NCBI RefSeq assembly: GCF_006345805.1
Contig: NC_043005.1
Span: forward strand, 46,996,001 to 47,060,000
Reading direction: 5' to 3'
Length of the DNA: 64,000 nucleotides
DNA from: Octopus sinensis
Lineage: Eukaryota
The first letter of the stretch is position 1, and each line of letters starts with the position of its first letter. Below are positions 54,052-58,115 of this stretch, one piece after another. The position numbers were made by a program, and so were the translations under genes. The notes below the pieces were generated by a model. That model ran no database searches and was not told the origin of the DNA. It was given only the letters and a program-made list of their open reading frames with translations.

Positions 54052-54074
<23 letters not shown>

Positions 54075-54082
<8 letters not shown>

Positions 54083-54700
54083 GTATATCTGAATGTACAT
54101 ACATGTATGTACGTATACATACATACATACGTAAACCTAACACTTTACTCCAAACCATATGTACTGTGTTCTCATAACTAGTTATAGACATCAATATTAT
54201 GTATGTATGTATGTATGAATGTATGTGTTATGTATGTATAGGTCCAGGTGCAGCAGTGTGGTAAGAAGATTGCTGCCAAACAGCACGGTTTCCGGCTCGG
54301 TTCCACTGGTAGCAGCTTCAGCAAGTATCTTCTACTCTAGCCTCAGGTCGACCAAAGCTTTGTAGGAGGAATCGGTTGAATGAAACTGAAAGAAGCACGA
54401 CGTCTATATATATATATATATATATAGATATATATGTATATGTATATATATATATATGTATGTATATATGCATATATGTATACATAAATATATGTATATA
54501 TATATATGTATGTATATATGCATATATGTATACATAAATATATATATATACATATATGTATACATAATATATATACATATATATGCATATACATATATAT
54601 AATATATACATATATATATACATATATATATATTATATATATATATATATACATATATGTATACATACATATATATATATATAGATATATACATATATGT

Positions 54701-54999: not shown

Positions 55000-55069
<70 letters not shown>

Positions 55070-55392
55070 GTCGTGCTTCTTTCAGTTTCATTCAACCGAT
55101 TCCTCCTACAAAGCTTTGGTCGACCTGAGGCTAGAGTAGAAGATACTTGCTGAAGCTGCTACCAGTGGAACTGAGCCGGAAACCGTGCTGTTTGGCAGCA
55201 ATCTTCTTACCACACTGCTGCACCTGGACCTATACATACATAACACATACATTCACACATTCTTACATACATAATATTGATGCCTATAACCAGTTATGAG
55301 AACACAGTACATATGGTTTGGAGTAAAGTGTTAGGTTTACGTATGTATGTATACGTACATACATGTATGTACATTCAGATATACATATGTAT
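54075..55392. repeat. Foldback inverted duplication around a TA-rich spacer
   Basis: 54075-54404 is the near-perfect reverse complement of 55067-55392, including non-SINE flank and the 5' half of a SINE B. Confidence 0.95.
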
Positions 55393-55469
55393 ACGTTTAT
55401 ATATTTATATAATATACGTTTATATATTTATTGGTTAAACTGGCAAAATGACCATTCCGAAATATAAAA

Positions 55470-55544: not shown

Positions 55545-55727
55545 GTAAATAGACACTTTAATTTGATATTAATTGGTTGGAGGAGAGGCTTCCTTCTAGC
55601 TGCTTGTCCATAATAATCAAGCTTATGCAGATATGTAACACACGTTCTTAGACTAACTTCTAACTGTTTTGCAATATCAGAAGCCGTTGCACAGGGTTCG
55701 TTTTTCACAATTCTCTTCAAACAGCGA
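55545..55727 (-). pseudogene. Tc1-family transposase fragment (second HTH region)
   Basis: RCLKRIVKNEPCATASDIAKQLEVSLRT...LHKLDYYGQAARRKPLL. Confidence 0.8.
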
Positions 55728-55767: not shown

Positions 55768-55942
55768 TAGATAGATAGATAGATAGATATAGATTCTTTA
55801 CTCTATTACTTGTTTCAGTCACTTTTTGACTGTGGCCATGCTGGAGCACCGCCTTTAGTCGAGCAAAATAGTAGAAGTCACTTGCCCAAGGTGTCACACA
55901 GTGGGACTGAACTCGGAATTATGTGGTTTGTATGCAAGCTAC

Positions 55943-57984
55943 ATTATTTCATAAAATTTGTCATCATAGACAGTACAAAGAGTGTGTAGCTTTGCGGGCT
56001 GGACTAACACATTAATGAATGTAAATGAAGTAGAATGAATAAATGAAAGACGAAACCTAACACCCACCGATTGGATTTTTCTCGAAAATATATGTTCTTT
56101 TTTGAAAAAATCAATATGAGGTTTCAAACCTCTTACAAGAAGGAGGCACAAAAACCTCTTACTTAACATGTCTTTTTTTTAAACACACAATTGAGGTTAT
56201 GAACCACTACAAATAATACAATAAGATGAGGTTTCAAACCCTATAACGAGGGTCTTTCACCTCCTACTCTTCGATATATCCATCGATATATTCATCATTA
56301 TCTTCAATGCCGCTTGAGTTCCTGTATCCCGCCATTTCCCATGCCTCACTCATGTAGGACATGTAAGTCGTGTAAGGGCCACCCGGCGATATCCGACACT
56401 CCTCCCCAAATCCTTTAAGCCTTTCCCACAAGGGAAACCTTATGACCTCCACAGCTGTCTGCGGAGGCCATTCGGGATCCCGTGTGAAGGGCATATCAAC
56501 TGTCTCTTTATGTTCTTCTACTATTTTTTCCACCTCCCTGTCCGTATAGAAAAAGATAATTAATTGATCATCTTTAAGGGTGGGGGTGGTTTCTTCCACC
56601 GTGGGTGGCACAACTTGCGACGTGCAGACGGCACATCATCTCCCCGCTGAGATGACCCGTTCTCCTTCCTTCTTTTTTTTCTTTTCTTCCAAACTTCGGA
56701 AGAGTGGATCTCTTCCGCTTTGTCCGGATACTCTCCCCCGCCTCCCGAAGCCTTAGGTCCCTTCGGTGGGCAACTATTGTTGCCCGCCTACTTCCTTTTT
56801 AATCCTTTTTAGGTTGAGGAGGCTGAAGCTTCCTCGACCACACCCACCTCTCCCTTTGACCGGGTAGGGGAGGTGGAATCTAGTGACTGTTCCAGGACCT
56901 TACCATAGTCCTGGGGCAGTTCCTTTTAATGTGGCCTGGCTGCAGGCACGAGTGACACTTGGGGGGACGTCCCTCATTTATCACCGGATACCTGTAGCCA
57001 GCCATTTTCAAGAAATCTGGAAAAACTAGATCTGTTGCGGCCGATGGGATCCACAGGGTCTAAATCGCTTTTGACCCTTCCCAATCGACCGCCGGCAATA
57101 CCCTTACATTTAAGAGCCTGTGCCCGCCATCCCCCAGCCCCCGTCGGATGGTATCTTCAATCCAATCCGCTTCGGTTCCTGGGGGCACCCACATACCCAG
57201 GCTCTTATTAATTTCCTCCCGCAATATTACGGGAGGAACAGAATTTCCTTGCCTTCTAAAGGCTGACTCGCAAACTGGCGAGCCTTTTTCCCGTTGTCAA
57301 ACTGCAACCATACGGTAGCATGTGTGACACCACGGGATATATATTTTAAAGAGGACAAATAGTCTTTAAGTTCATTTTTTATAACTTGTTTTGGGAAGAC
57401 GTCTTCTCCTCCATATCTTTTAACCACTGCTTAGGCAGGTTAATTTTCCCCTCTAAGACAGAGTTTTTCTTTTTAAGTTCCTTCTCTGCTATGTCAAAAA
57501 ACAGTTCAAAAGTAGTTCAAAAGACAGTCTGCCAAAAAATTAAACCGAATAAAAATAAAACAAAATAAAAGAGGAGGAAAGGAAACTGAAATTAAAGTAA
57601 TGAAAATAATGAACCAAAATTTAGAAAGAAAGAAAAATAGAAGGGAAAAGTAAAAGAAAAACCTCACAAATAGCACAGACAGGGAATCCTTTGTGTAATA
57701 CTCCAAAAAGGCAATCCAAATGGCTTATTCTTGAAGTACTCCAGTTCGGAAAAATTGTACTTTTTCTGGCGAGATACGCCCACTAGAATTTACAAAAAGA
57801 ATTTTCTAGCAATAATTCTCAATTCACCGTTACGGTGATGAGAACCCAGTATTTTCCTCGCTATAGCGAGCCATAATTGACAATTTTCTTTTTGTCTTTT
57901 TTTCTATTCACGGAGTCAAAAAATCTCACATCTTGTCATTGTAACAGTCCAGGCCAACTAGTGTTGCATTCTGGGTAACCGGAA
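55943..57984 (-). mobile_element. ORF1-only (gag-like) non-autonomous non-LTR element
   Basis: TSD GTATGCAAGCTAC / GTAAGCAAGCTAC; broken ORF with CCHC knuckle; no RT or endonuclease motifs and no room for them. Confidence 0.75.
56264..57490 (-). pseudogene. Disrupted L1/Tx1-like ORF1 nucleic-acid-binding protein
   Basis: Fragments 57227-57427 and 56264-56611 plus YPVINEGRPPKCHSCLQPGHIKRNCP (CX2CX4HX4C at 56916-56957); stops and frameshifts; start position uncertain. Confidence 0.75.
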
Positions 57985-58115
57985 GTAAGCAAGCTACTTA
58001 CCACACAGCCACTCCTATATATATATGTTTACGTTTGTTTGTCAAATGGATCTGATTACATTTCCATCGTCGGCTAAGTAATTTGTCCTAAATTGCTTGT
58101 CTCTAGTATATTCAT

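Follow-up and report, generated by a model that had tools for sequence, protein, structure and literature searches.

A decayed ORF1-only non-LTR element at a fixed SINE site in Octopus sinensis, and a target-matching tag that may help its RNA choose the site

The 64,000-nucleotide stretch of Octopus sinensis DNA analysed here (the window) contains a decayed copy of a multicopy, diverse and old clade of non-LTR retroelements that encode ORF1 only. With a probability of about 0.8, we regard it as a member of a fixed-site ORF1-only family that likely moves by TPRT with the ORF2 of an L1/Tx1-type LINE, and whose RNA likely helps to choose the site. The components of this reading differ in strength: that the family is site-specific and mobilised in trans is highly probable, and that RNA pairing contributes to site choice, as comparison of sequences suggests, is roughly an even bet. 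The locus itself is a dead copy; what makes it interesting is the family it represents and the claim that RNA steers site choice. Beyond the original prediction of a half-LINE-like, ORF1-only element at this locus, the analysis adds a SINE as target, a radiation across the clade and a tag that matches the target.

The element occupies 57984-55943 of the minus strand (2,042 bp) and is flanked by two 13-mers that match except at one base (Table 1). Its extent, 5' end, knuckle, stop at 56264, broken ORF and lack of ORF2 are as originally predicted, and its 3' UTR measures 321 nt. The leader, described earlier as T-rich over about 500 bp, is present (some 490 nt) and T-rich over its last ~200 nt only (54-58% T, versus 24-35% in the first 300 nt); it likely holds an internal promoter. 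ORF1 is without its ATG, contains stops, lacks 43 bp near 57401 and lacks a single base near each of 57187, 56916 and 56616. Compared with 13 sister copies, the window copy diverges by 3.4% at scored sites, and A-to-G hyper-editing was ruled out by its substitutions (A>G 9, T>C 7, G>A 14). Contigs that span most of the element came from four sequencing runs (two presumed RNA, two of unspecified kind) and attest to presence only, not to expression. ORF2 is absent from the window, and the partner LINE described below matched the window in a microsatellite only. We take TGGCTGTGTGG at 58011-58001 to be A-box-like after the Pol III consensus. Compared with other host copies, the host SINE of the window (55800-55929, minus strand) lacks its middle part, roughly at least 190 nt including a microsatellite.

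Table 1. Features of the window copy and its host SINE.
Feature	Position	Strand	Remarks
5' remnant of the putatively tRNA-type head of the host SINE, interrupted by the insertion	57998..58015	-	A-box-like TGGCTGTGTGG at 58011-58001
5' target-site copy GTAGCTTGCTTAC	57985..57997	-	a true duplication for 7 bases or more from its start; remainder may be element-borne
5' leader, 492 nt, starts TTCCGGTTACCC	57493..57984	-	T-rich in last ~200 nt only
Broken ORF1	56264..57492	-	~420 codons in intact relatives; two predicted RRMs, CCHC knuckle, basic low-complexity linker, conserved C-terminal block
CCHC zinc knuckle KCHSCLQPGHIKRNC (knuckle motif EGRPPKCHSCLQPGHIKRNC)	56916..56960	-	read from sequence
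ORF1 stop	56264-56266	-	
3' UTR, 321 nt, without poly(A) tail	55943..56263	-	
Tag GCAAAGCTAC	55986..55995	-	reverse complement, with one bulge, of target bases 1-9; predicted pairing with read-through target RNA
4-bp 3' hairpin TGTC-loop-GACA	55959..55972	-	common to the autonomous LINE as TGCC/GGCA, with compensatory changes
Terminal AATAAT (other copies AATAAA)	55943..55948	-	adjoins target directly
3' target-site copy GTAGCTTGCATAC	55930..55942	-	
Remaining host SINE	55800..55929	-	B-box-like 55914-55903; tail 55820-55806; large internal deletion versus other host copies

The family was delimited by a DNA search of the genome (2.72 Gb), which gave 2,112 candidates; 40 were scored and the best 30 loci, including the window copy, were fetched. 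In all 30 best loci ORF1 runs into the same 3' UTR, and the copies align with no space for ORF2, which agrees with the predicted multicopy family with a constant ORF1-to-3'UTR junction. Twenty-seven of these 30 best matches are end-to-end copies of 2.0-2.3 kb, none of them with ORF2. The leader of the window copy is shared from its 5' end by 22 of the 30, another leader is found in five, and three are 5'-incomplete. A family-specific 3'-end pattern has at least 136 exact matches in the genome and its reversed control has none, so that the family is not a product of chance.

An ORF1 search (11,443 candidates, 150 scored) revealed a large group of ORF1s at 62-69% identity among the best 150 of the 11,443 candidates. 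In 14 of 14 sister copies, picked for long frames, a frame of 416-436 codons is followed directly by tail and target, and a sister ORF1 matched one named protein, which comes from Octopus sinensis and is uncharacterised (60%). In a quick tree built from 60 rows and rooted at the midpoint, 48 rows group in a clade separate from 12 autonomous ORF1 rows (SH-aLRT 100), with ORF2 absence checked for part of the 48 and the autonomous families being those reached by one endonuclease query. At 102 junction loci, 45 elements end in clade ORF1, 10 in ORF2, and 47 were assigned to neither; ORF2 in other copies, named beforehand as the sign of an internal deletion, was looked for and occurred in none of the 45 in the stretch examined.

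Raw dN/dS amounts to 0.09-0.25 in 34 of 35 computable family pairs (one of the 36 pairs was saturated) and, for the two closest subfamilies, to 0.35 raw and 0.16 net; the rows were chosen to be frameshift-free, and many dS values are saturated. By these sequence ratios ORF1 is held under purifying selection between families, which is how the dN/dS check proposed with the original prediction turned out. The element could in principle have arisen from a LINE by internal deletion, as a single or recent event that left ORF1 a mere passenger, as the broken window copy and the within-family dN/dS of 0.25-0.74 would allow. We consider this very improbable: the same exact 3' end recurs in at least 136 copies, ORF1 is only ~31% identical to that of the partner (30-34%, E 1e-11 to 1e-16), many families make up the clade, with saturated dS and low dN, and the long frames run into the tail in all of the 14 sister copies. 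An LTR retroelement or provirus was likewise excluded, given that the target duplication is the only terminal repeat, that copies are truncated at the 5' end, and that the partner has AP endonuclease and RT. A common leader start was also observed on differing ORF1 families (leaders of L024, L025, L027, L028 and L030; L072, L073), which suggests leader swapping between ORF1 families.

ORF1 is predicted by structure modelling to contain two RRM folds, and a CCHC knuckle comes after them. In the AlphaFold2 model of a sister ORF1, most 10-residue blocks between residues ~10 and 200 have a pLDDT of 70-90, with three at 64-67. The best Foldseek matches of the model are tandem RRMs (E 2e-4, with low TM-scores), and its VIA Z values reach up to 8.3, mostly for RRMs. 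A Pfam search of ORF1 gave no RRM; zf-CCHC was matched in copy L020 at E 0.002, under the curated cut-off. The putative RNA-chaperone role that had been ascribed to ORF1 draws on this predicted RRM-RRM-CCHC fold. The C-terminal block has low model confidence, and neither Pfam on ORF1 nor the structure model provided a family or confident model match for it. A motif of this block, FYxGGEVEK...PEWPPQxAVE, is kept across the ORF1-only clade (window 56264-56560, minus strand; L061, L065, L067).

The predicted 13-bp duplication is present with its one mismatch, but it is not a copy-specific TSD, since the 13-mer is the same in nearly all copies. It maps to one position in the head of a SINE that is abundant and shows A-box-like and B-box-like motifs, and it is constant because all copies occupy this single site. 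Distinct TSDs had been expected among copies; the same target sequence was observed instead, because the family is site-specific. The SINE head lies directly 5' of 26 of the 30 copies and the SINE body 3' of most. When 30 of the 136 3' ends were read blind to their flanks, 28 showed a strict target match, one a partial and one a degenerate match (30/30 target-like); the strict 28 of 30 compare with the more than 20% of flanks of one type that Kojima's criterion, in the available text, asks of a target-specific non-LTR element (PMC4494074).

Hallmarks of target-primed insertion, namely target duplication and 5' truncation, are present, and poly(A) is absent at every junction read. Copies truncated at the 5' end (L107, L119, L121 with ~38 bp, L130) retain the SINE head at the break, and others are stacked in tandem behind other families (L010, L111, L127, L002, L068); the truncated and tandem copies indicate independent insertion events. 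The constant flank could also descend from a single ancestral insertion if SINE and insert were copied as one composite unit, with which the SINE heads 5' of 26 of 30 copies and the SINE bodies 3' of most are compatible. We give this reading hardly any weight, given that truncation down to ~38 bp leaves the SINE head at the break, that different families are stacked at one site, that host SINEs vary by variant, and that autonomous LINEs are found at the same site; truncated copies inside intact SINE heads led us to reject composite SINE-plus-element transposition.

The GTAG variant of the site has 356 exact filled junctions versus 30,554 exact empty sites (with patterns that differ in length), and a second SINE variant, GAAGCTT instead of GTAGCTT, is filled by other families at 150 versus 6,749 empty sites. 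Targeting of the GTAG variant alone is refuted by the similar or higher rate at which GAAG is filled, and the GAAG type makes up one third of 42 empty SINE heads in the fetched loci. Occupancy thus counted is ~1-2% of exact-match sites. This low fraction bears on the proposal that the host retains ORF1-only elements as dominant-negative suppressors of LINEs or as silencers of SINE promoters, a proposal that we judge very improbable. The insertion does split the A-box-like from the B-box-like motif in sequence, and ORF1-only copies outnumber ORF2-ended ones by 45 to 10 among assigned junctions; however, so few sites are occupied, the copies decay through stops and frameshifts, and selection acts mainly between families, as expected for selfish elements.

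The 5' target copy of some young sister families (L061, L062, L069) is family-specific past base 7 and is therefore carried by the element from there on; in young families the element RNA likely bears target sequence at its front too. As regards the SINE itself, Rfam on one host copy gave no tRNA match and microsatellite-type noise only, and the A-box-like and B-box-like motifs were read by eye. The octopus SINE families OK, OR1 and OR2 of Ohshima and Okada (1994, as cited in PMC4758252) are reportedly tRNA-derived. Insertion of SINE into SINE by means of the host SINE's own tail is unsupported (five matches genome-wide to one tight pattern, three of them plausible). A SINE tail adjoins the target within another SINE in L131, L133 and L134, which is rare. 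A SINE head or body is fused to the 3' tail of a LINE or ORF1-only element, at the target, in L049 (1180-1506) and in the last 100 nt before the junction of L172, and these chimeras possibly arose from template switching. A young group with the AGCTAC tag (L208-L233) stands in a third target variant, ending in TAAC, in 16 of 21 cases (by eye), unlike the family of the window element, which is mostly found in TTAC hosts.

An autonomous LINE with a common 3' end, which the original prediction had proposed to look for, was found. At the same SINE site stands L076, a LINE of 5.45 kb that has ORF1 and an ORF2 with endonuclease, RT and zinc parts; further autonomous copies reside there (L081-L083, L085), and both frames of L081 are open (488 and 1,137 aa). 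The partner ORF2 contains the Pfam domains Exo_endo_phos, RVT_1 and zf-RVT, and among solved structures it is nearest to human L1 ORF2p (E 3e-65, versus 6e-20 for R2). By these sequence features, an AP endonuclease, an RT and a C-terminal zinc motif, the partner is a member of the L1/Tx1 group; its "Tx1-type" label is our assumption from the ORF1 knuckle and the target specificity, traits that we take to mark this type, and a search gave no match to a named Tx1 reference. Of 20 loci fetched by endonuclease, four end at the target and one starts there, more distant families end elsewhere, and in some loci an end was not detected. Other young L1/Tx1-type LINEs with a homologous ORF1 (L089-L095, L098) end at constant-looking or unrelated sequence outside this SINE.

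The 3' ends of partner and element resemble each other over ~40 nt only. The 3' hairpin within this stretch has 94% of cells paired in 26 tails, with seven double-change cells; in shuffles, 0 of 500 reached the observed value on three of five measures, and 53/500 and 298/500 did so on the two that count pairs or types. From the common site and the common hairpin, a full-length L1/Tx1-type LINE at the same site probably supplies the enzyme. The family of the window element is older than the young partner family (98-99% identical), whose older relatives L085 and L099 fit better as candidate donors.

A role of RNA in site choice is suggested by the tag, the reverse complement of the target start, which is found 43-50 nt from the end in ORF1-only and 79-83 nt from the end in autonomous elements. 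Exact tags AGCTAC and AGCTTC occur at 28:1 in GTAG and at 1:20 in GAAG junctions (p 9e-12), on a base of 50 GTAG and 52 GAAG junctions in which the exact tag is found in 50 of 102 (missing in 21 and 31, respectively), copies within families are non-independent and a number of loci appear in more than one sample. Counted by sequence cluster, 27 of 28 are concordant at the stricter threshold and 18 of 19, plus one tie, at the looser one, with mixed clusters taken by majority. A flank-blind pattern that left the tag base free gave 31 matches, of which 30 were fetched: AGCTAC lies in GTAG hosts in 21 of 21 and AGCTTC in GAAG hosts in nine of nine cases, where one AGCTAC copy was read by eye and two AGCTTC copies are near-duplicates (L236, L237). 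Tails that are almost identical, apart from the tag base and a few adjacent bases, occupy different SINE variants, and the tag states are interleaved on the ORF1 tree, with weak support. The tag types overlap in age (pairwise 0.05-0.07 for the core of one AGCTTC family versus 0.051 for the family of the window element); GAAG hosts are older (11.6% versus 7.9% divergence), so that age partly confounds the coupling of tag and target. Templating of the tag at each insertion was rejected, as family members retain their own tag in either host.

Since the tag switches with the occupied SINE variant, it suggests that read-through RNA helps in site choice. The partner of the tag could be read-through RNA, target-like bases at the 5' end of the RNA, or the displaced DNA strand, all three of which fit the data. 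For the end and flank of the window copy, a stem that joins tag and target is predicted at -15.1 kcal/mol; tag and flank are paired in the minimum-energy fold of just 34/50 and 23/49 loci, and in 40/50 and 30/48 the native flank gives better pairing than a swapped flank.

The strongest competing account holds that the endonuclease alone picks the site, as in Tx1L, with two partner lineages, one per variant, and a tag-flank stem that serves folding or 3' processing; we see it as a serious possibility at somewhat under even odds. Target choice in the Tx1 clade is, in the accessible part of the source, put mainly to the endonuclease (PMC4494074), autonomous elements occupy both SINE variants (five and five), and copies with no tag or a mismatched one still lie at the exact site. 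Some autonomous-type or unassigned tails are wholly without tag, L166 has a TAC-type tag in a GAAG host, as do L144 and L173, which are related to it and were read by eye, L060 shows the reverse, and one subfamily of the window element's family, with a shortened tag, is still in GTAG hosts. Set against this account are the tails that are near-identical save for the tag base and a few neighbours and that split completely by variant (21/21 and 9/9), the weakly supported interleaving of tag states on the ORF1 tree, and the precise junctions without poly(A).

On the reading that RNA contributes, we envisage the following sequence of events. Transcription would start from the element's leader and run past the terminal AAUAAA into the SINE target, and the ORF1 protein, with its predicted RRM-RRM-CCHC architecture, may coat the RNA in cis. 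The ORF2 of the partner would then bind the common ~40-nt tail and hairpin, and its endonuclease would nick the bottom strand at GGTAA|GTAGCTT, on the left margin of the duplication. The tag in the 3' UTR would keep the read-through bases GUAGCUUGC in a stem, and these bases could anneal to the nicked strand and prime at AATAAA; priming exactly there would mean that no poly(A) is copied and that the junction is exact. Insertion retains the target on both sides, which is why later copies stack in tandem, and across families a change of tag goes with a change of the SINE variant occupied, whether the element is ORF1-only or autonomous. We tentatively speculate, and would rather bet against it than for it, that this amounts to a heritable, RNA-programmed choice in which the passenger's read-through and tag steer one borrowed enzyme, so that an old clade tracks SINE turnover by single-base tag changes.

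Annealing of this kind has a precedent in R2Ol, where, according to the available text, RNA that extends into 3' flanking target sequence anneals to the target with these bases and makes insertion more efficient (PMC6530143); the read-through bases proposed for the octopus element would act alike. Unlike the octopus system, R2 employs an endonuclease of restriction-like type and has one invariant target in rDNA, and an internal tag that tracks target variants was not found in the portion of the R2 source at hand.

Each of the further traits has counterparts elsewhere. Mammalian HAL1 carries a poly(A) tail. HAL1 proper is excluded here, as poly(A) is found at no junction read and the sole ORF1 protein match is from Octopus sinensis, and the element is HAL1-like in working only. 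In the accessible parts of the literature, HAL1 (half-L1) of mammals is an ORF1-only, non-autonomous LINE derivative (PMC5753468, PMC13756887); the octopus element is similar in that it encodes ORF1 only, derives from an L1-group LINE, is non-autonomous and would need ORF2 in trans. In contrast to HAL1, its ORF1 is of the predicted RRM-RRM-CCHC type and only distantly related to that of its partner, and it belongs to a mollusc lineage, is site-specific in a SINE, lacks poly(A) and has a target-matching tag. ORF1-only elements are also represented by HeT-A and ~40% of Drosophila telomeric families (PMC5537684, PMC13534243, as far as their available text goes), which likewise occupy a single niche, form head-to-tail arrays mixed with ORF2-bearing partners, and are long-lived. 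HeT-A is, however, of the Jockey group, located at chromosome ends and host-serving, whereas the octopus element is of L1/Tx1 type and uses an internal site in a dispersed SINE.

Tx1-type LINEs are known to target other transposons together with a passenger, such as Tx1-Mar with SINEU-3 in crocodilians, or Tx1L in Tx1D (PMC4494074, available text). Here, too, a LINE and a non-autonomous passenger share one target in another transposon, with tandem insertions around the TSD; the SINEU-3 passenger is a non-coding SINE and its target a DNA transposon, whereas the octopus passenger encodes ORF1 and the target is the head of a putatively tRNA-type SINE. In the literature searched, subscription papers, Repbase and supplements aside, neither an ORF1-only or SINE-targeting LINE of cephalopods nor a tag that follows the target variant came to light. 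A 2026 repeat paper on O. vulgaris gives L1-Tx1 families, and the part of its text available makes no mention of ORF1, nesting or target; its supplements and Repbase/Dfam may hold such families.

Altogether, one system unites ORF1-only parasitism, site specificity of the Tx1 type and read-through priming, each of them a known trait. Its hundreds of dated natural insertions and the natural switch by one base make two questions testable: why non-autonomous LINE derivatives retain an ORF1 of their own, and what share of TPRT site choice is set by the RNA as opposed to the endonuclease. If the RNA does steer the enzyme, the system would be a natural, partly reprogrammable L1-type inserter for a dispensable multicopy site. 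In cephalopod repeat annotation, such elements would be classed as truncated LINEs.

Two further observations concern the surroundings of the element in the window. An open stretch, LKRIVKNEPCATASDIAKQLEVSLRTCVTYLHKLDYYGQAARRKPLL, at 55560-55720 (minus strand) presumably resembles a DNA-binding fragment of a Tc1/mariner transposase. Positions 54060-54464 and 55007-55411 form a SINE-bearing inverted duplication of 405 nt (92%), with a 542-nt AT-repeat spacer in between.
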